Assembly (NCBI GenBank): GCA_038231275.1
Contig: JBBRLQ010000012.1
Coordinates: forward strand, 1-64,000
Length of the DNA stretch: 64,000 bases
From: Polyangiales bacterium
Lineage (GTDB): Bacteria > Myxococcota_A > Polyangia > Polyangiales > Polyangiaceae
Direction of reading: 5' to 3'
Shown: piece by piece, positions 34,066 to 57,070 of the stretch
Position numbering within the stretch: position 1 is the stretch's first letter
Layout: each line of letters opens with the position of its first letter
Program-made: the position numbers and the translations under genes
Notes under the pieces: generated by a model
What the model was told of the DNA's origin: nothing
What the model saw: the letters and a program-made list of their open reading frames with translations, nothing else
The model's database searches: none

Positions 34066-36519
34066 TCAGCGCGGGCACGCCGTGGGGTAGAGGAGGTATT
34101 TGTCGCGCTTCACACGAAACGCCGCGAGCTCCTTGTCCCACGTCGCCTCGATCTCAGGCAGCGTCTTGCCTTGCGCGATCGCGTCGAGCGCCGCGCGGTT
34201 CGCGAGGAGGCGATTCACGTCGTCGAAGTGCCACTTGCCGGCGTGGAGCGTCCGCAAATCGCTGGCCAGCGCGAGGCCGGCGCGTACCGGCTCGAAGCGC
34301 GCGCGATCGGTGACGGTGATGCGAACGCCCGAGCAGCGCTCGCCCTTGTACGGCGCCGCCTGCGGAGTGAAGGTGGTCGCGGCGAACGAGACACCGGGGA
34401 TCCCGCGACCGGTCAGCGCGGCGGCGAGCACAGGCCCGTCGACGAACGGCGCGCCGACGACCTCGAACGGCGTGTCGGTGCCGCGACCGACGGAGAGGTT
34501 CGTCCCCTCGACGAGCCCCACCGCCGGATAGAGGAGCGCCTCGGTGACGCTGCGGAGGTTGGGTGACGGGTTCACCCACGAGAGGCCCGTCGCTTCGAAA
34601 TAGTCGCCGCGCCGCCATCCCTGCGCCGCCACCACGTCGAGCGTCGCGCCGAGGTGGTCCTCCGCATCGAAGAGGAGCGCGAGCTCGCCGATCGTCATCC
34701 CGTGGCGAACGGGCAGCGGGCCGTGGTGCACGAAGCTCTTGGACGCCGCGTCGACGAGCGGACCGGCGACGTCGAGGCCGTCGATCGGATTGGGCCGGTC
34801 GAGGACCATGAAGGCCACGCGCGCGAGGCTGGCCGCCTTCATCGCGCGGCGCAGCGTCGACGGGTACGTGTAGTAGCGCGTGCCGACGTCCTGCACATCG
34901 AAGACGAGGACGTCGAGCCCCTCGAGCGTCTCTGGCGGCGGCGCGAACGTGGCGCCGTAGAGGCTCACGACCGGGAGGCCCGTGGTCGCGTCGCGCCCGT
35001 CGGGGAGGAGCCCCTCCTTGTCGGCGCCGAGGCCGTGCTCCGGCGTGAAGATGCGCACCAGCGTCATGCCCGGCGCGGTCGCGAGGAGATCGATCGTGCG
35101 CGTCCCGTCTTTCGCGCGCCCCGACGCGTTGGTGAGGAGGCCAACCTTCTTCCCGCGCAGGCGCAAAAAACGCTCGGCGCGCAGGACGTCGATCCCCGTC
35201 AGGACGTCGCGCCCGTCGTGCTCGCACGGCGACGGCGTGCGCGCGAGACCTGCGACCTCTGCGGCGATCGTTCCGATTTTCGCCTCGAGCTCGTGGACGG
35301 CGCCGCGCCCGTACGGGTGAACGCGGTTGCTGAGGAAGAGGACGAACAGGTCCGCGTCCGGATCGATCCACAGCGACGTACCGGTGAACCCGCCGTGGCC
35401 GAACGCGTGCCGGGAGAGGCCCTCACCGCGGTGCTTGGTGAACGCGCTCGACATGTCCCAGCCGAGCGCACGGATTCCGCCGGGCACGTCGTGCGGCGCG
35501 AGGAACGCGGCGAAGGTCGACGGTGAGACGACGCGCGCGCCGGAAATCTGGCCTTTCCCGAGCCACGCCTGCGCGAAACGAGACAGGTCGCGCGCGGTGG
35601 AGAAGAGGCCCGCGTGACCCGCGACGCCGCCGAGCGCGTAGGCGCGAGGATCGTGGACCTCGCCCTGCATGAAGCCGGCGTCGGGGCGCATCTCCGTCGG
35701 CGCCGCGCGGGCGCGCATCGGCTCGGGCGGCGTGAACGACGTCTCGCGCATGCCGATCGGCGCGAAGACGTTCTCGGCCGCGAAGGTCGCCACGTCCTTT
35801 CCGCTCACCCGATGGACGAGCTCGGCCAACACCATGAAGCCGACGTCGGAGTAGACGAGGCGCTCGCCGGCGGGCCATCGCGCCGGCGCGTCGAGGATGC
35901 GTCGCCACGCCTCGTCCGGTCCGCGCGCGAAGTCGCTCATCGGGTTGTCGGCGACGAGCCCTCCCACGTGAAGGAGCAGCTGCCGCACGGTGGTGGCCCC
36001 TTTCCCTCCGTGCGCGAACTCGGGAAGGTACGTCGCGACCGGCTCGTCGACGGCGACTTGCCCGCGATCGACGAGCACCATCACGCTGGCCGCCGTCGCG
36101 ATCGGCTTGGTGAGCGACGCGAGATCGAACACGGTGTCGATCTGCATCGGCAGTCGCGCCGGCGCGAGCGCGCGCTGCCCGAAGGCGCGCTTGTAGAGGA
36201 TCTCGTCCTTTCGCCCCACCACGACGACGCAGCCGGGCATCTTGCCCTCGACGAGCGCCGCCTCCGCCGCGGCCGCGATGCCGGCGAAGCGCGGGTCCTC
36301 GACGGAAGGACCCGCGAAGGGATCGGTAGCGGCGCCGTCCGCAGCAAACGCGGTGGCCGCCTCGACGTCGGCGTCGGAAACGAACGCGCCGGCGGCTCCC
36401 GAGGAGACGGGAGCGACCGGCGCGCGGGCATCGGGCGGCGGAGACTCGGCGCAGAACGTCAGGAGCGCGCCGAGGATGATCGGAGCGACGACGAGAGCAG
36501 CGCGAAGCGCGCGGGCCAC
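34066..36519 (-). CDS. Serine hydrolase (beta-lactamase-like) fused to a DUF1343/NamZ-type exo-beta-N-acetylmuramidase
   Basis: FDLASLTK (SxxK), YSD, HGGFTG; then GIDVL, PEHG, DVQDVGTRYYTY, LDRPNP, PSPNL, EGTNLSVGRGT. Confidence 0.9.
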   Translation of the reverse strand: MARALRAALVVAPIILGALLTFCAESPPPDARAPVAPVSSGAAGAFVSDADVEAATAFAADGAATDPFAGPSVEDPRFAGIAAAAEAALVEGKMPGCVVVVGRKDEILYKRAFGQRALAPARLPMQIDTVFDLASLTKPIATAASVMVLVDRGQVAVDEPVATYLPEFAHGGKGATTVRQLLLHVGGLVADNPMSDFARGPDEAWRRILDAPARWPAGERLVYSDVGFMVLAELVHRVSGKDVATFAAENVFAPIGMRETSFTPPEPMRARAAPTEMRPDAGFMQGEVHDPRAYALGGVAGHAGLFSTARDLSRFAQAWLGKGQISGARVVSPSTFAAFLAPHDVPGGIRALGWDMSSAFTKHRGEGLSRHAFGHGGFTGTSLWIDPDADLFVLFLSNRVHPYGRGAVHELEAKIGTIAAEVAGLARTPSPCEHDGRDVLTGIDVLRAERFLRLRGKKVGLLTNASGRAKDGTRTIDLLATAPGMTLVRIFTPEHGLGADKEGLLPDGRDATTGLPVVSLYGATFAPPPETLEGLDVLVFDVQDVGTRYYTYPSTLRRAMKAASLARVAFMVLDRPNPIDGLDVAGPLVDAASKSFVHHGPLPVRHGMTIGELALLFDAEDHLGATLDVVAAQGWRRGDYFEATGLSWVNPSPNLRSVTEALLYPAVGLVEGTNLSVGRGTDTPFEVVGAPFVDGPVLAAALTGRGIPGVSFAATTFTPQAAPYKGERCSGVRITVTDRARFEPVRAGLALASDLRTLHAGKWHFDDVNRLLANRAALDAIAQGKTLPEIEATWDKELAAFRVKRDKYLLYPTACPR

Positions 36520-45256: not shown

Positions 45257-46968
<1,712 letters not shown>

Positions 46969-48395: not shown

Positions 48396-49127
48396 ATGGG
48401 CCACGACCACGATCACGACCACGACCATCCCCACGACCACGTGCACGAGCGGCTCGCGCATCCGGGGCTGTTTCGTGACCGGGCTCCGGCGCGACCGAGG
48501 GAGTTCGGGAAGCGCGCGTTCACCGTGGGGATCGGAGGGCCGGTAGGGAGCGGGAAGACGGCGCTCGTCCTCGCGCTCTGCAAGAGACTGCGCGACGGCG
48601 TGCGTCTCGGCGTCGTCACGAACGACATCTTCACGCGCGAGGACGCGGAGTTCTTGCAGCGCAACGACGCACTCGCGCACGAGCGCATTCGCGCCGTCGA
48701 GACCGGTGGCTGCCCCCACGCCGCGATCCGCGAGGACATCAGCCACAACCTCGACGCGCTCGAGCAGCTCCACATCGACGCCGCGCCCGAGCTCCTCCTT
48801 CTGGAGAGCGGCGGCGACAACCTGGCGGCGCAGTTCAGCCGCGAGCTCGTCGACTACACGATCTACGTCATCGACGTGGCAGGCGGCGACAAGGTGCCGC
48901 GCAAGGGCGGGCCGGGGATCACGCAGAGCGATCTCCTCGTCATCAACAAGATCGATCTCGCCCCGCACGTCGGCGCGAGCCTCGACGTGATGAAACGCGA
49001 CTCCGAGCGGATGCGCCAGGGGGGGCCGTTCGTCTTTGCGCAGTGCCGAGAGGGGACGGGGATCGACGAGATCGCGCGCCGGGTGCTCGCGGCGCGAACC
49101 GACGCACTCGGCCAGTCGCGCACGTGA
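48396..49127 (+). CDS. ureG: Urease accessory GTPase UreG with a His-rich N-terminus
   Basis: [33 protein letters not shown]-terminal [13 protein letters not shown]. Confidence 0.97.
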
Positions 49128-52354: not shown

Positions 52355-52717
52355 ATGTCCGACGAACCGGAGCAGGACAGCGACGTCGTCTACCTCCACA
52401 GCCCGACCGACGACGGCGACGGCGTTCGCGTCGTCCGCGCGCGTCAGGGCAAGGTGGAGATGGGCGAGGTGCGTCCCATCGCCGAGGGCAAGCCGCTCTC
52501 CGGCGAGATCGTCAGTCTTCGTCCGCGCGAGGGCTCGCCTCGGGTATGCGACGTGAAGGTCGAGTACGCGAAGACGGACGACGCAAAGCCCGCGAGCGCC
52601 TCGGGGAGCGCCGCGAAGGGCCCCGCGCAAGTCGCGACGACGACGTACCGCGACAACTGGGAGTCGATCTTCGGAAACGCCGGCCGCCGCTCGAAGAAGG
52701 CCGCCGTCCTGAATTGA
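52355..52717 (+). CDS. Small hypothetical protein
   Basis: AAGGAG RBS; GPAQVAT..YRDNWESIFG C-terminal motif. Confidence 0.7.
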   Translation: MSDEPEQDSDVVYLHSPTDDGDGVRVVRARQGKVEMGEVRPIAEGKPLSGEIVSLRPREGSPRVCDVKVEYAKTDDAKPASASGSAAKGPAQVATTTYRDNWESIFGNAGRRSKKAAVLN

Positions 52718-53044
52718 TCGCGCGCGTCTGGACAAACTCGTCCGTAGTGCGCACGTTGCGGAGCACTCGAGGCTCTCGGGGCGAAGTCATCTGCGCACCA
52801 AACCGCGCTGCCGCCCGCACCCTCACAACGTTTTTTCGGCCGAAACGCCGAGGCACCTTTCAGACAATTCGCATCGGTCCACGGCGACGTGCGGCTTCTC
52901 GTTCGTTCATCCGTTCGAGAAGGCGCACGACCGCCGGAATGAGCCCACGCCTTCGGCGTGACGCGCAGCCGGGGAGCCACGTTTGCTCCACGCGCCGATG
53001 CACCGTTTTCCCGCGCCCATCCGGCAAGGCCCCACAAGCAAGCT

Positions 53045-53141
53045 CGGAGATTGTTGGTTCGACTCCAACCGGCTGCACCGCGTTCTCGGACGCTCTCGCA
53101 CGCAGCTGTAGCCTAACGGTAAGGCACCGGCCTCTTAAGCC
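53045..53141 (+). ncRNA. Circularly permuted tRNA-Lys(CUU)-like domain; probable YrlA-type Y RNA (true RNA ends unknown, probably wider)
   Basis: The 3' half comes first: GG, AGATT, T-arm GTTGG-TTCGACT-CCAAC, CGGCTGC, ACC (53046-53079). The 5' half follows: GCAGCTG, TA, D-arm GCCT-AACGGTA-AGGC, A, CCGGC-CTCTTAA-GCC (53102-53141). It lies upstream of a TROVE-vWA-like gene. Confidence 0.8.
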
Positions 53142-53321
53142 AAAAGCCATGGCTTTCCCACTCGGGCGTGGGCAATTCTTTTCAAAAGATCGAGATCACC
53201 GCCGCGTGGACGCCAAACGTTCGCGCGCCCGAGCCGCAGGTTAAATCGGGCACACGAACGGCGGCCGCGCGTCCCGCGGCGGGGTTCTCTCAGTTATTCT
53301 TCCCTTCCTTCGGAGGTCCCC

Positions 53322-55094
53322 ATGAACACGAACCAGACGCGCGCGCCCCTTCCGGAGTCGCAGCTCGGGCCTGCCGAGCGGCTGCTCGATCTCGTGCTCA
53401 ACTCGTCGGCGCACCTCTGGCACAACCGGCCGGGGCTCGACGTCCGCGGTGTGTGGCACGCGGCCCGCGGCGCGAAGGTGCGCGGCACCGCCGCGAAGCC
53501 GGGCCTCTTCGTTCCGGCGGCGCGCGGCCTCTACGCGCGCCTCCTCGAGATCTACACGCTCAACGCCGATCTCATGGCGCACTTCGCGTCGTACGCGCTC
53601 CTCGAGACCGAGTGGCGCGATCTGAAGGTCGCGTGCGCCGCGCTCATGCTCGTTCAGGGCAAGAGCGGCCAGCCGATCAAGGAGGACCTTGCCAAGGGCG
53701 CCGCCGTCGCGTTCTACGACGACGACTACCGTGCGATCGGCGAGGCGATGGTCCTCTTCTACGCCAAGAAGAGCACCAAGATGCTCACGCCCAAGGGCGT
53801 GCTCCGCGTCGGGGAGCTCCTCGAGGTTCCGGAGATCGCTGCGCTGAACCGCGCCGCGGGATTCGGCGACGCGACGGGCGGCAAGGCGCCGCTCGGACGC
53901 TGGAAGCGCGCGGCCACCAAGTGGCTCGCCGCGCGCGAGAAGAACCGCGTGATGCTCGAGGGCCTGGTCCGCGCCGGCTACAAGGAGACCATCAAGAAGA
54001 TCGCCCGAAAGGCCGGCTACAAGCCGGAGACGCAGGCCTTCTTCGAGATCCTCGGTTGGAAGCAGAAGCAGGCGGACGGCGGTCACCGCACCGTCGGCCT
54101 CGGCGCCGACCTCAAGCTGGAAAAGCGCGAGCGCTTCGACGGCGTGAGCGAGGCCGAGATCTGCGAGCGCATCGAGCAAGATCGCCTGTCGTACAAGGAC
54201 GTCGTCGGGCGCCTGCCCAAGGACGTCGGGCTCACCCCGGCGATCATGGTCGCGCTCCTGCCGTCGCTCAGCGATCGCGATCTGCGCATGCTCACCCCCA
54301 CCCTCGAGGAGCTCGGGCTCATGACCGAGCCGGAGATCCGCGCGAAGTGGGAGAAGGCCATCCTCTCGTCGACCGACCAGCGCTCGCTCACCACGGCCAA
54401 GAACGTGAAGAGCAAGGCGCTCAAGGAGAAGCTCGAGGAGGCCGCCGACAACGCCGCGAAGAACGCGGTCAAGGCGGCGACCAAGGACAGCGACGTCCGC
54501 GTCATCTTCCTCGTCGACAAGTCGGGGAGCATGACGAACGCCATCGAGCAGTCGAAGGAGGCGCTCTCGCGAATCCTCGCCGGTTTCCCTGGAGAAAAGC
54601 TGCATGTTGCAACCTTCGACACGACCGGGACGGTCCTCCGCCCCAAGGCGGCGTCGCGGGCGGCGGTGCAGCACATGCTCCAGGGCATCACGGCCGGCGG
54701 CGGCACGATGCACGGCGCGGCGGTGCGCGCGCTCCACGAGGCGGGCGTGTCTTTCCCCAAAGAGAGCAAGCTCGTCGTCATCGTGGTCGGAGACGAGGCG
54801 GGCGAGACCGGCGAGCAACTGGCCCACGCCTTCCGCGCCTTCGGCTTCGACGTCGCGGCGCTCGCGCTCATGCTCCCCTCGCAGGCGGGTCGCGGCTACA
54901 CGGTCCGAAACTGCGCGACTGCGCTGGGCATCCCGTTCAGCGAGGTCACGCTCGATCAGTTCGCCGATCCGTATCAGGTGACCCGCGTCCTCACAGCCCT
55001 CCTCGAGGCGCCCAAGATGATCGCGGGCCCCGTGAAGCAGGCGGGCTGGGTGGAGAAGGTCATGAAGACCAAGCTCCTCGAATTGCCCAACTAG
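53322..55094 (+). CDS. Divergent Ro60/Rsr-like protein (TROVE-like helical domain + C-terminal vWA)
   Basis: The vWA MIDAS (FLVDKSGSM, GGT, VVGDE) is clear. N-terminal LMAHFASYAL..WRDL...AAL, PLGRWKRA..KWL and LRML..LEELG echo TROVE blocks. Adjacent to a Y-RNA-like element. Confidence 0.65.
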   Translation: MNTNQTRAPLPESQLGPAERLLDLVLNSSAHLWHNRPGLDVRGVWHAARGAKVRGTAAKPGLFVPAARGLYARLLEIYTLNADLMAHFASYALLETEWRDLKVACAALMLVQGKSGQPIKEDLAKGAAVAFYDDDYRAIGEAMVLFYAKKSTKMLTPKGVLRVGELLEVPEIAALNRAAGFGDATGGKAPLGRWKRAATKWLAAREKNRVMLEGLVRAGYKETIKKIARKAGYKPETQAFFEILGWKQKQADGGHRTVGLGADLKLEKRERFDGVSEAEICERIEQDRLSYKDVVGRLPKDVGLTPAIMVALLPSLSDRDLRMLTPTLEELGLMTEPEIRAKWEKAILSSTDQRSLTTAKNVKSKALKEKLEEAADNAAKNAVKAATKDSDVRVIFLVDKSGSMTNAIEQSKEALSRILAGFPGEKLHVATFDTTGTVLRPKAASRAAVQHMLQGITAGGGTMHGAAVRALHEAGVSFPKESKLVVIVVGDEAGETGEQLAHAFRAFGFDVAALALMLPSQAGRGYTVRNCATALGIPFSEVTLDQFADPYQVTRVLTALLEAPKMIAGPVKQAGWVEKVMKTKLLELPN

Positions 55095-55117: not shown

Positions 55118-56086
55118 TTGGCCGACTACCGAAAGTTCCTCTCCAAGGTCGAGACGAGCGTGCTCCCGTATTTCGGCGGCACGCGCGTCGACACCTCCTC
55201 ACGTCGCTTGCGTCTCCCGAGCGCGCTGGACGCGCCCGGCTGGTACACGTTCGAGATCAAGGGGCGTGAGGCCTTTCCGAAGGATCCGGCGGACGCGCCG
55301 GATCTCTCGGACCTACCGCTCGCGCGCGGTCACGTCGTCGGGCGCTGGCTCGTCGGCGACAACGCGGGCGCGGTGGAGATGGAGCTCTTTTCAGAAGAAG
55401 AGCCTCCGGTGCTCGCGCCATGCCGCGCGCGCGTTTGGTACGGGGGAGAGGTCCTCTTCGAGGGCCTCGACTTCGAGGGCGAAGCCGAGCTATCCGCGCG
55501 CGAAGCGCTGGAGGATGGCCGCTCCCTCGAGGGCATCAAGGGCGTCGGCGCGCCGTTACGGGCCGCGTTCGCCTACGCGGTGCTCGCACGCACGTCGCGC
55601 GAGCTCACCATCCCATTCTCTCCAAAAGAAGTACGAAAGGATCTCCTCACCATCGCTGGAACTGGGCCCGACGGCGCCGCGAGTTCGCTGCGCCGCCTCG
55701 AGCACGAGCGACGCATGTGGCGCGCGCTTCACCCCGAAGAGGCCCTCCTGCGCGGAGAGGCTCCTCCTCCCGTTCGCCACCACGGCCCCCAGCCGACGCT
55801 CGCGAACGCCGAAGAACGCGCCGACGCCGCCCTCGAAGCGGCAGGCGCGCGCCTGCTCGCCGTCCGTCGCCTCGGCGATCGCCAGCTCGAGGTTCGGTAT
55901 CGCTTCATGGACGAGCGCTTCGTCACCGTGTGCGACGCGCTCACGCTGCAGATCCACGACGCCGGCGTCTGCCTCGGTCACGGCGAAGAGCGCGGCGATC
56001 GCCTGCTCACACTCGAGAGCCTTCCGTCCGTCATCAAGGAGGCGATCGACACCGACGTCCTCGTCATCACTCGCGGCTTCGCTTGA
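55118..56086 (+). CDS. Hypothetical protein with a C-terminal E2/UBC-like Cys motif
   Basis: TTG start with a purine-rich RBS. C-terminal IHDAGVCL...TLESLPSVI resembles the E2 G-x-C-L active site and following helix. Confidence 0.5.
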   Translation: MADYRKFLSKVETSVLPYFGGTRVDTSSRRLRLPSALDAPGWYTFEIKGREAFPKDPADAPDLSDLPLARGHVVGRWLVGDNAGAVEMELFSEEEPPVLAPCRARVWYGGEVLFEGLDFEGEAELSAREALEDGRSLEGIKGVGAPLRAAFAYAVLARTSRELTIPFSPKEVRKDLLTIAGTGPDGAASSLRRLEHERRMWRALHPEEALLRGEAPPPVRHHGPQPTLANAEERADAALEAAGARLLAVRRLGDRQLEVRYRFMDERFVTVCDALTLQIHDAGVCLGHGEERGDRLLTLESLPSVIKEAIDTDVLVITRGFA

Positions 56087-56166: not shown

Positions 56167-56409
56167 ATGGCGATTCTGAACATCACGTACAACGGTCTGT
56201 CGGCGGACTACCCGCTCGACATGAACTACGACCTGTCGGACGCCGACGTCCGGCGTATCGCGCTCGAGGTCGTGCGTTCGGGCGGCGTCGGCGGCCTCCA
56301 GATCGCGAACCTCGACGAGCGCGCCTTCGCGGCGCACGTGATCGACCGGTTCCAGGGCCAGGACGGTGCCCCGCGCATCTACCTGCGTCCCAAGGTCCCG
56401 TTCGGTTGA
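56167..56409 (+). CDS. Small ubiquitin-like (beta-grasp) candidate ending in Gly
   Basis: 80 aa; beta-beta-alpha-beta pattern; C-terminal IYLRPKVPFG; directly upstream of an E1 gene. Confidence 0.6.
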   Translation: MAILNITYNGLSADYPLDMNYDLSDADVRRIALEVVRSGGVGGLQIANLDERAFAAHVIDRFQGQDGAPRIYLRPKVPFG

Positions 56410-56482: not shown

Positions 56483-57070
56483 ATGCGGGTGCGGATCGTG
56501 TTCTGCGGCGTGGGCGCGCTCGGCTCGACGGCGGCGGTCCTGTGCCGAAACCTGCCTTCGACGCTGGCGTTCGTCGACTTCGATCGTGTCGAGGCGAAGA
56601 ACCTCGCGGCGCAGGCGTACGTCAAGCCGTCCATCGGGAAGAACAAGGCCGATGCGCTGAAGCTCCAGCTGCTGAATTTCTACGGCATCAAGGCGGAGGC
56701 GTTCGGCGTCCGGCTGGGCGCCGAGAACGTCGCGACGCTGCTCGGCGCCGCGGATCTGATCGTCGACGCGTTCGACAACCAGGCGAGCCGGCTCGTCCTG
56801 TCCACCTATGCGCGTGCGGCGAGAAGGGCGCTCGTGCACGGCGCGCTCTCGGGCGACGGGACGTTCGGCTTGGTCCGTTGGGACGAGCGCTTCGTGCCCG
56901 ACGCCGAGGACGAGGCGGGCCAGGCCACGTGCGAGGGCGGCGAGCACCTGCCGCTCATCGGTCTGCTTGGCGCGGCGCTCGCGCGCGCGATCCAGGATTT
57001 CGTGAAGAGCGGCGCGCGGCGCGACTCGATGGTGAGCCTCGCGGCGGTGACGCCGACCGCGTCCACGTGA
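56483..57070 (+). CDS. ThiF/MoeB/E1-like adenylyltransferase
   Basis: GVGALG, DFDRVE.KNL..Q, GKNKA, DAFDN..SR; a single Cys in ATCEG; no Zn-binding CxxC pairs. Confidence 0.9.
   Translation: MRVRIVFCGVGALGSTAAVLCRNLPSTLAFVDFDRVEAKNLAAQAYVKPSIGKNKADALKLQLLNFYGIKAEAFGVRLGAENVATLLGAADLIVDAFDNQASRLVLSTYARAARRALVHGALSGDGTFGLVRWDERFVPDAEDEAGQATCEGGEHLPLIGLLGAALARAIQDFVKSGARRDSMVSLAAVTPTAST

Follow-up and report, generated by a model that had tools for sequence, protein, structure and literature searches.

What is a 97-nucleotide (nt) stretch of bacterial DNA that reads as a complete tRNA-Lys(CUU), anticodon loop included, once its two halves are exchanged? The element lies at positions 53045-53141 of a 64,000-nt stretch from a Polyangiales bacterium (positions 1 to 64,000 of contig JBBRLQ010000012.1, assembly GCA_038231275.1, forward strand; hereafter the window). 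An initial annotation, made from the letters of the window, had likened it to YrlA, a tRNA-mimicking bacterial Y RNA, placed it upstream of a TROVE-vWA gene and offered three readings of its loop: a decoy or sensor for anticodon nucleases, a relic of a tRNA origin, or a true permuted tRNA gene. On balance we favor the reading that it is the tRNA-like core of a non-coding RNA of about 170 nt, a mimic of the Y RNA/YrlA type whose anticodon loop is a fast-evolving specificity element. That the RNA belongs to a real structured family is virtually certain, that it is the partner of the adjoining vWA protein is quite likely, and that its loop is functional and under diversifying change is likely, if slightly less so; that the loop serves specifically as bait or sensor for anticodon nucleases is a tentative suggestion.

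The permuted tRNA-like core

The features of the core are as follows; letters with a two- or three-digit number in brackets or in pairs are the last digits of window positions, and U8, A9, A26, G18, G19, 15:48 and 42-43 follow tRNA numbering.

53046-53047, +, GG, tRNA positions 42-43; pairs C128-G46 and C127-G47
53048-53052, +, variable loop AGATT; T52 and A116 could make the 15:48 pair (ARAGORN cloverleaf of the swapped sequence, and reading of the sequence)
53053-53069, +, T arm GTTGG-TTCGACT-CCAAC; 100% of cells paired, 3/5 pairs compensatory
53070-53076, +, 3' strand of the acceptor, CGGCTGC, then A77 C78 C79; all 7 family pairs changed on both sides, 90.8% paired
53077-53101, +, linker of 25 nt closing the acceptor end, with the hairpin GCGT-TCTCGG-ACGC inside (53080-53093)
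53102-53108, +, 5' strand of the acceptor, GCAGCTG; 7 pairs with 53070-53076, one of them G-U
53109-53126, +, U8 and A9 (T109 A110), D arm and A26; D stem 83.1% paired, 3/4 pairs compensatory
53111-53125, +, D arm GCCT-AACGGTA-AGGC, with the equivalents of G18 and G19 in the loop
53127-53141, +, anticodon arm: CCGGC (53127-53131), loop CTCTTAA (53132-53138) and GCC (53139-53141); anticodon CTT at 53134-53136

When 53102-53141 was joined by script to 53046-53082, ARAGORN called the product a tRNA-Lys(ctt) of 74 nt. The swap yields a canonical cloverleaf in which no nucleotide of the tertiary pairs is missing, and every element that the initial annotation had listed for it is in place. In the native order ARAGORN was silent, both on 53000-53190 and at this site in a scan of the whole window, and the Rfam tRNA model (RF00005) gave 19.9 bits, below its gathering score of 29. 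As controls, the parse-and-swap procedure was run on reversed or shuffled upstream regions, which returned 4, 7, 1 and 3 parser matches and 0 ARAGORN calls, against 68 matches and 49 calls in the real regions. As the control regions yield no call and the helices covary across 34 related modules, a chance origin is excluded. A comparison by identity gave no evidence of descent from a specific tRNA: the nearest tRNA-Lys(ctt), in the tRNA array of the same contig, is identical at only 51/74 positions, and other tRNAs tie with it.

A scaffold encloses the core

The 97-nt element is the core of a longer scaffold (53010-53172) and not a free-standing unit. The parts of the predicted RNA that surround the core are these.

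About 53010-53182, +, predicted whole RNA of ~170 nt, made up of scaffold, permuted tRNA-like module and U-rich tail; covariance model R1, 119.5 bits over 53008-53174
53010-53018, +, 5' strand of helix P1, CCCGCGCCC; pairs with 53164-53172, 92.8% of cells paired (34 sequences), 7/9 pairs changed on both sides
53019-53023, +, 5' side of an internal loop, ATCCG, facing the invariant CACUC; the consensus of 97 scaffolds is nnCCG
53024-53031, +, 5' strand of helix P2, GCAAGGCC; pairs with 53151-53158, 91.5% of cells paired, 6/8 pairs changed on both sides
53032-53039, +, unpaired conserved motif CYACANGC, here CCACAAGC; candidate protein-binding bulge
53142-53150, +, spacer AAAAGCCAT from the anticodon hairpin to the 3' strand of P2; neither its length nor its sequence is constant across the family, with an alternative local pairing with 53151-53156
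53151-53158, +, 3' strand of P2, GGCTTTCC; partner of 53024-53031
53159-53165, +, invariant CACTCGG, the 3' side of the internal loop and the first P1 pairs; A153 to G157 of alignment A4 invariant
53164-53172, +, 3' strand of P1, GGGCGTGGG; partner of 53010-53018
53176-53182, +, U-rich tail TTCTTTT; TTT at most 20 nt after P1 in 73/97 scaffolds

P1 joins CCCGCGCCC (53010-53018) with GGGCGUGGG (53164-53172), and P2 joins GCAAGGCC (53024-53031) with GGCUUUCC (53151-53158). P1 closes the fold both in the minimum free energy structure of the single sequence and in unguided RNAalifold, and the single-sequence fold recovers P1 together with the T arm and the acceptor. The 5' bulge of the scaffold reads CCACA and then AGC, and within the CYACANGC motif A27, C28, A29, G31 and C32 (numbering of alignment A4) are invariant in 34/34 sequences. 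A local hairpin at 53157-53172 that scored as terminator-like is an alternative fold to P1. A third scaffold pairing, P3 (53036-53038 with 53147-53149), was 61.8% paired with no covariation and was rejected.

An RNA family in Myxococcota

The protein encoded next to the RNA (the partner protein, described below) has full-length orthologues in 3/60 related genomes searched; its relatives in a large protein collection share about 70% identity with it, and wherever a source is named there, the name points to Myxococcota. Genome loci with the partner protein number 66, and 97 distinct scaffolds were found across Myxococcota, as 1-7 tandem modules per locus upstream of the partner gene. The scaffolds have in common the 5' CYACANGC, the 3' CACUCGG and covarying P1 and P2 helices, and they hold inserts of three kinds, namely a permuted tRNA body, a normal-order tRNA-like body, and plain hairpins; three of the normal-order modules exceed the Rfam tRNA threshold, at 60-66 bits. 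The parser gave 68 permuted candidates, 53 of them embedded in a scaffold, and ARAGORN called 45 of these 53 as tRNA after the swap. For an independent sample, metagenomes were scanned with the two scaffold motifs only, which yielded 41 matches in 39 loci and 38 distinct modules. ARAGORN called 32/38 of these as tRNA after the swap, and of the RNA-selected matches that 1200 nt or more of sequence follow, 13/20 had the partner gene 36-544 nt downstream on the same strand.

Covariation was assessed on alignment A4, built with MAFFT and not fitted to the structure, which holds 34 of 50 referenced permuted modules: the window group, short-linker modules and three Corallococcus-type rows. The 16 modules left out are near-duplicates, carry long linkers or parsed poorly. 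The named structure is paired in 88.5% of cells, compared with 67.0% in shuffles, a level that 0/500 shuffles reach, and controls with the structure slid along the alignment gave at most 42.2%; both sides have changed in 31/41 of its pairs, and the anticodon stem as a whole is paired in 80.9% of cells. Unguided RNAalifold finds P1, P2, the T stem, the acceptor and the lower three pairs of the anticodon stem, in all 29 pairs of which 23 are compensatory. The order of T arm, closed acceptor and D arm, which the initial annotation had recognized as YrlA-like, is thus borne out by helices in place and by their covariation.

The acceptor linker bears on what becomes of the RNA. It is 24-26 nt long in the window, in the sister genome (G001) and at one further locus (L077), and 4-9 nt long in most relatives. 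Its hairpin is preserved through compensatory changes in G001 (GCGTC/GACGC) and in L077 (GAGCCC/GGGCTC); the T stem of G001 is likewise compensatory relative to the window (ACGGG/CCCGT), and the loop CUCUUAA is identical in both. One could propose that such an RNA is processed into a chargeable tRNA-like molecule, with RNase P cutting before G102, the 3' end trimmed to A77-C78-C79 and the CCA completed. The product, a Y RNA whose acceptor end is free, would have A73 as its discriminator and CUU as its anticodon, and lysyl-tRNA synthetase might charge it. The three long linkers, single-stranded before the 5' acceptor strand and with A-C-C after the 3' strand, are compatible with this, and the YrlA of Mycobacterium smegmatis is cut by RNase P and receives CCA, according to the passages on this RNA in PMC4201824. 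The acceptors of most relatives, however, are closed by 4-9 nt (GCAA, for example) and present no discriminator, and their bodies are generic with varying anticodons, CAG on a class I body and CUA among them, so that we consider processing of this kind improbable.

The same observations bear on the possibility that the locus is a true circularly permuted tRNA gene, from which the scaffold would be excised, the ends ligated and the acceptor opened to give a working tRNA-Lys(CUU). The canonical cloverleaf of the swapped sequence would suit such a gene, as would the RtcB ligase encoded in this genome, though unlinked (contig C18). The genome nevertheless already has three ordinary tRNA-Lys(ctt) calls, the nearest of which the module resembles as poorly as stated above; conservation and covariation show that the scaffold is no leader to be thrown away; relatives commonly close the acceptor with a tetraloop; and anticodons such as CUA occur. 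A bacterial splicing endonuclease is not known, as far as the relevant passages of 10.1101/312249 state. The loops of 4-9 nt that close the acceptors of relatives and the many anticodons on generic bodies lead us to regard this reading of the initial annotation as extremely unlikely.

An anticodon loop with a changing triplet

The initial annotation had placed the break of the permuted body in the 3' strand of the anticodon stem, and the family agrees. In 25/30 modules the partner of position 27 lies in the 5' segment (columns 51:134: GC 21, AU 3, CG 1, other 5), in only 5/22 can it pair with the local 3' nucleotide, and position 28 is able to pair either way (columns 50:135: AU 13, GC 9, GU 1, other 7). 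From the pairing of position 27 it follows that the scaffold leaves the tRNA body within the 3' strand of the anticodon stem. The anticodon loop sits on a branch hairpin of 3-4 base pairs (bp), and the lower three pairs of the anticodon stem are 95.6% paired, all of them compensatory.

Loops were counted in 60 modules: 31 permuted with an intact lower stem, 19 scaffolded in normal order and 10 of Corallococcus type. The count dropped 22/53 permuted modules that do not have an intact lower stem, and 17/36 native ARAGORN calls, of which 15 are ordinary tRNAs without the scaffold motif and 2 are irregular. The 60 loops keep a length of 7 nt and a common signature (Y32 in 60, U33 in 53, R37 in 51, A38 in 45), which recurs in the metagenome loops (Y32 21/21, U33 17/21, R37 18/21), and positions 34-36 reach an entropy of 1.74-1.93 bits with 29 different anticodons. 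Conservation of the loop upstream of homologous genes, which the initial annotation had named as a test, holds in part: its architecture is kept and the triplet varies, with the exact loop CUCUUAA kept only in the sister genome G001. The tRNA bodies do not track the anticodon, as shown by CAG on a class I body and by CUA in another genome (G049), and the modules are therefore displays of anticodon loops and not copies of particular tRNAs.

The pace of this exchange was measured in the ten Corallococcus-type modules, which are 94% identical per column and yet carry seven different loops. On a tree of the adjacent gene, the triplet 34-36 required 11 changes by Fitch parsimony, compared with 1.65 expected from 300 four-fold sites, and 0/100,000 random triplets of four-fold sites reach 11; the mean pairwise difference among the ten loci is 0.64 for the triplet and 0.14 for four-fold sites.

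If the anticodon hairpin were a structural leftover, function would resemble that of YrlA and act through the tRNA elbow, and the letters of the loop would drift unread. It is consistent with this that some modules in the same arrays have no tRNA body or anticodon hairpin, and that the YrlA structure, as presented in the part of 10.1101/312249 devoted to it, amounts to function without an anticodon loop. Against it stand the retained length of 7 nt, the constancy of Y32 (60/60), U33 (53/60) and R37 (51/60), and a triplet that changes faster than expected from drift, unless four-fold sites are themselves constrained. The signature that is kept and the triplet that changes fast also disfavor the relic of a tRNA origin that the initial annotation had considered, and we judge a leftover to be rather improbable.

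A U-turn loop that presents 34-36 for pairing, with diverse triplets and several of them combined per array, could alternatively be a guide by loop-loop contacts: through codon-like or anticodon-anticodon pairing it would capture RNAs such as specific tRNAs or mRNA sites and pass them on to the Ro60-like ring to be degraded or repaired. Three base pairs offer little specificity, though, and to our knowledge the complements of the common triplets (CUU, CGA, GUU) are not usual bacterial anticodons; a guide of this kind is very improbable. Among the three readings of the initial annotation, a decoy or sensor would appear to fit best.

A probable Ro60-like protein encoded downstream

The gene next to the RNA is described by one line.

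53322-55094, +, partner gene, 590 amino acids (aa): N-terminal helical domain and vWA domain with a metal ion-dependent adhesion site (MIDAS) motif; Ro60-like predicted fold (Pfam vWA only; AlphaFold and Foldseek)

It starts 140 nt downstream of the U tail of the RNA, on the same strand. The MIDAS residues D399, S401 and S403 are invariant in the family. The AlphaFold model of the protein (predicted local distance difference test 87.4, predicted template modeling score 0.80) found Ro60/TROVE structures in all of its 12 best Foldseek matches, over ~500-620 aligned columns with E values of 1.7e-8 to 6.8e-7, and VIA-align superposed it on Ro60 (human, frog, Deinococcus and a 'Trove domain' entry) with Z scores of 13.4-14.5 and a root mean square deviation of 5.2-5.7 Å over 418-442 residues. 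The partner protein is thus probably, as far as its predicted model can tell, homologous to Ro60 and Ro60-like in fold. Its neighbors in a protein atlas are TROVE clusters at 0.84, which serves as a lead only. By sequence, a six-frame scan of this genome with PF05731 gave no match, and searches of the PDB with the single protein and with a profile gave no TROVE match for the N-terminal domain. An hhalign match to TROVE at 95.7% was discarded, as it is carried by the vWA part and not by the N-terminal domain. Viral contigs held no relative of the partner protein with the query used.

The position of the RNA, on the same strand and shortly upstream of this gene, allows for another view, in which it would be a cis-acting leader of the vWA operon, its U-tailed modules being attenuators or autoregulatory protein-binding sites and not free RNAs. 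The U-rich tail after P1 in 73/97 scaffolds, the terminator-like hairpin at 53157-53172, and a vWA gene for which no separate promoter was seen all accord with a leader. It is harder to reconcile with arrays of up to seven modules and with copies far from any such gene, and attenuation needs no tertiary design of tRNA grade; the leader is in our estimate about as improbable as the chargeable RNA discussed above.

Some observations concern the region between RNA and gene and its expression. The segment from the RNA to the start codon (53185-53300) is ~88% identical to G001, contains GC-rich inverted repeats and may be a structured leader; the leader in the sister genome (G001, locus L003) has an insertion of GACCCC/GACGCC-type hexamer repeats that is absent from the window. 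Metatranscriptome contigs less than 95% alike over the 5' region of the vWA gene hint at expression of relatives in soil, with DNA carry-over possible.

A possible role as bait or sensor

When these findings are placed together, a mechanism can be proposed. The Ro60-like vWA protein would probably dock at the CYACANGC bulge and the CACUC internal loop. From the P1/P2 scaffold the permuted tRNA body would emerge, with 27:43 and 28:42 joining the 5' and 3' segments, and the anticodon hairpin would branch off at these pairs, so that the RNA, presumably transcribed, could show a tRNA elbow and an anticodon loop together. The loop would act as a specificity element, its architecture kept and its triplet exchanged quickly, with up to seven modules per locus carrying different triplets. 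Its likeliest use, we would tentatively suggest, is to act as a bait, a decoy or a sensor of enzymes that recognize tRNA anticodon loops, in the first place anticodon nucleases. The RNA may belong to a system of RNA damage or conflict, to which many genomes would add an OB-like (oligonucleotide/oligosaccharide-binding) protein and a pair of ubiquitin-like and E1 proteins. It could further be speculated, with a good deal of doubt, that the myxobacterial repertoire of interchangeable anticodon displays forms an innate, polymorphic set of baits or sensors against the anticodon-directed nucleases of bacterial and phage warfare. The vWA protein and the ubiquitin-like/E1 pair would then signal that a bait had been cut or an enzyme captured.

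A number of results pull in the other direction and temper this reading. Concerning the protein, Pfam TROVE (PF05731) matched 0/36 diverse family members at E<=10, so that the TROVE-vWA gene of the initial annotation has no TROVE domain by sequence and matches Ro60 by predicted fold only. Moreover, hhalign gave the N-terminal domain probabilities of 6.5%, 1.3% and 0.7% against the TROVE open reading frames (ORFs) of relatives, the last two values for two subsets of them, and vWA-only structures matched the model with Z scores up to 14.7 over ~160 residues, no lower than Ro60; as these are equally high, the N-terminal part adds length and not score. Concerning the RNA, membership in YrlA is not upheld by the model: RF02553 (gathering score 69 bits) had no match in 52600-53400 at E<=10 and none in the window at E<=1, and the YrlA motif GNCGAAN0-1G is absent from the window (it occurs in 15/97 scaffolds, mostly of one clade, compared with 0.7 per 97 in shuffles). 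The folding energy of the single sequence is ordinary (z of -0.61 and -0.99), the parser had already selected the aligned modules for pairing in the T, acceptor and D helices (though not in P1, P2 or the anticodon stem), and scaffold copies occur away from the partner gene, in another genome (G034:C14) and in the tRNA array of this one. Concerning transcription, no sigma-70-like promoter was found in 52600-53400 and no common motif upstream of 41 first modules, a sigma-54-like match picked out by eye was discarded for its weakness, and two soil metatranscriptome runs covered only the vWA coding region (53355-53658), from relatives ~90% alike; the RNA region itself was covered only by a DNA run, possibly the one from which the present sequence came, and this coverage is uninformative either way on its transcription. 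Concerning the loop, the rate test spans one clade, ten related sequences and three sites, in modules whose D arm is atypical; codon bias may hold back change at four-fold sites when a genome is rich in GC, and replacement of whole loops by recombination without selection could mimic the rate excess. The bait proposal, finally, draws on a nuclease, a cleavage and a protein contact that we infer.

The locus is of interest beyond this genome, as conservation of Y RNAs and of the Ro60 proteins that partner them extends from bacteria to humans, and it bears on the question of what the tRNA-like domain of bacterial Y RNAs is for. One scaffold carrying a permuted, a normal-order or no tRNA body is a natural experiment, and the anticodon loop, absent from YrlA, is the fastest-changing part of the locus, which suggests that the partner still missing is one that reads anticodon loops. 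The question can be tested in cultured myxobacteria such as Corallococcus and Archangium. The analysis also adds a Ro60-like protein family missed by sequence profiles, a link between Ro60-like proteins, tRNA gene arrays and a ubiquitin-like/E1 pair, and a covariance model for an RNA class missed by annotation, whose normal-order modules are probably mislabeled as tRNA genes.

Downstream genes and genomic surroundings

Three further genes follow the partner gene.

55118-56086, +, gene X, 322 aa; directly after the vWA gene in 60/63 loci searched (tblastn)
56167-56409, +, ORF of 80 aa ending in ...PKVPFG, candidate ubiquitin-like protein; directly before the ThiF-like gene, 30 loci
56483-57070, +, core of a ThiF/E1-like adenylyltransferase, in an ORF open from 56366; PF00899 E 9.6e-20, 29 loci

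Gene X had no family in Pfam, NCBIfam or PADLOC, no atlas match and no sequence match in the PDB. In structure searches its best Foldseek E value was 0.019, and a likeness to OB folds reached Z scores of at most 7.0, within the range of common arrangements. Its model shows N-terminal beta barrels that are weakly OB-like, a long helical middle and a C-terminal sheet. The name 'Band 7' borne by two UniRef entries was rejected for gene X, since neither X nor its relatives matched PF01145 and hhalign against nine Band-7 ORFs gave 0.1%. One fused relative of gene X carries a JAB domain (E 1.9e-4). The 80-aa ORF and the ThiF/E1-like gene may be a pair for ubiquitin-like conjugation, or one of the sulfur-carrier kind, that has been appended to the Ro60-like operon.

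Elsewhere in the window, an ordinary tRNA-Ser(CGA) at 34433-34519 is the only ARAGORN tRNA call. An Rfam match to 5_ureB_sRNA lies at 45433-45690 on the minus strand (72.6 bits, above threshold) and an ORF for a CobW/UreG-type GTPase at 48396-49127, and the two together probably mark a urease gene region.

Outside the window, the same contig (C12) ends in an array of 20 tRNA genes (226768-229169), in which a stretch between tRNA-Phe and tRNA-Asp (227582-227681) has the scaffold motifs with a hairpin insert (44.5 bits with R1). A second permuted tRNA-like RNA, without the scaffold motifs and with the hairpin ACAGA-UUCGUAA-UCUGA, lies on contig C2 at 377417-377528 (L115:4918-5029); it is the best RF02553 match of the genome, at 36.7 bits and below threshold, and a Band_7 gene (77 bits) follows ~740 nt downstream on the same strand. 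Ordinary tRNA arrays stand beside canonical or weak TROVE genes at four loci (L108, L111, L109 and L112, in G017, G007, G015 and G038) and upstream of scaffold modules at three loci of the family (L027, L046 and L048), and it seems that in the myxococcotal order concerned Ro60-type genes and arrays of tRNA genes go together. Weak R1 matches beside the canonical TROVE genes of relatives, at one point read as YrlA with anticodon arms, were rejected when an Rfam scan identified them as neighboring ordinary tRNAs in arrays. At L109:1501-1628 (G015:C162:2118-2245), closely following an ORF whose match to TROVE is at threshold level, there is a YrlA-like permuted tRNA mimic with no anticodon hairpin and with the motif CUACACG.

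Comparison with known systems

Circularly permuted tRNA genes are known in red and green algae and in Thermofilum, as reported in sections of PMC3978253 and 10.1101/312249. As far as those sections describe them, they share with the window RNA a 3' half that precedes the 5' half and acceptor ends joined in the primary transcript, and they mature through a bulge-helix-bulge cut and ligation into working tRNAs. Here, in contrast, the junction is a conserved and covarying scaffold, most acceptors are sealed by a short loop, and the host is a bacterium.

The b7a-tRNA is a predicted, authentic-looking tRNA-like RNA beside Band-7 genes that has been tied to RNA repair, and tRNA-like RNAs have more generally been proposed as cofactors of RNA repair, both in passages of 10.1101/312249. 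On that description, a strong resemblance to real tRNA and a tie to a putative RNA-repair scaffold protein are shared with our RNA. The module of the window differs in being permuted, and the neighboring gene X is not a Band-7 gene. Burroughs and Aravind reportedly predicted the Band-7-associated b7a-tRNA in 2016. The full-text literature searched contained nothing on the present RNA family; that 2016 work and a 2020 review, which lie outside the scope of the search, may bear on priority.

With Ro60/Rsr proteins, which combine TROVE and vWA (PDB 1YVP, 2NVO, 9NEN), the partner protein has in common a predicted structure that aligns across both domains, the MIDAS motif and adjoining tRNA-like RNAs. 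It differs in the absence of a TROVE signal at the sequence level, in an extra beta-rich insert of its model near residues 38-58 and 118-132, and in a family that is almost wholly confined to Myxococcota records.

The closest relation is to YrlA (Rfam RF02553; Chen et al. 2014, PMC4201824). In the portions of PMC4201824 that treat Y RNAs, the ends of these RNAs form a conserved bulged helix bound by Ro60; there and in parts of 10.1101/312249, YrlA has the motif GNCGAAN0-1G near its 5' end as a proposed Ro60 contact and is encoded beside TROVE genes. Traits that mark YrlA also include a distance of at most about 4 kb to a same-strand Ro60 orthologue, binding by Ro60, and Psi55 and D modifications. 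The window RNA has T arm, closed acceptor and D arm in the same order, its ends pair where the anticodon stem begins, and the tertiary nucleotides of tRNA are kept; a same-strand gene for a putative ring-plus-vWA protein adjoins it, and it often stands in tandem with a second Y-like RNA without a tRNA body. Unlike YrlA, which 'lacks the anticodon loop' in the account of its structure in 10.1101/312249, it retains the 7-nt loop CUCUUAA on a covarying 3-bp stem that branches off, a departure that the initial annotation had rightly singled out. It further differs in having its own scaffold with its own invariant motifs, in a partner without a Pfam TROVE match and in an RtcB gene that is not linked. 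The RNA family described here is real, conserved and previously unannotated. Three traits set it apart: it has kept an anticodon loop whose letters change fast, it has a scaffold of its own, and its partner is a Ro60-like protein that escapes sequence profiles.

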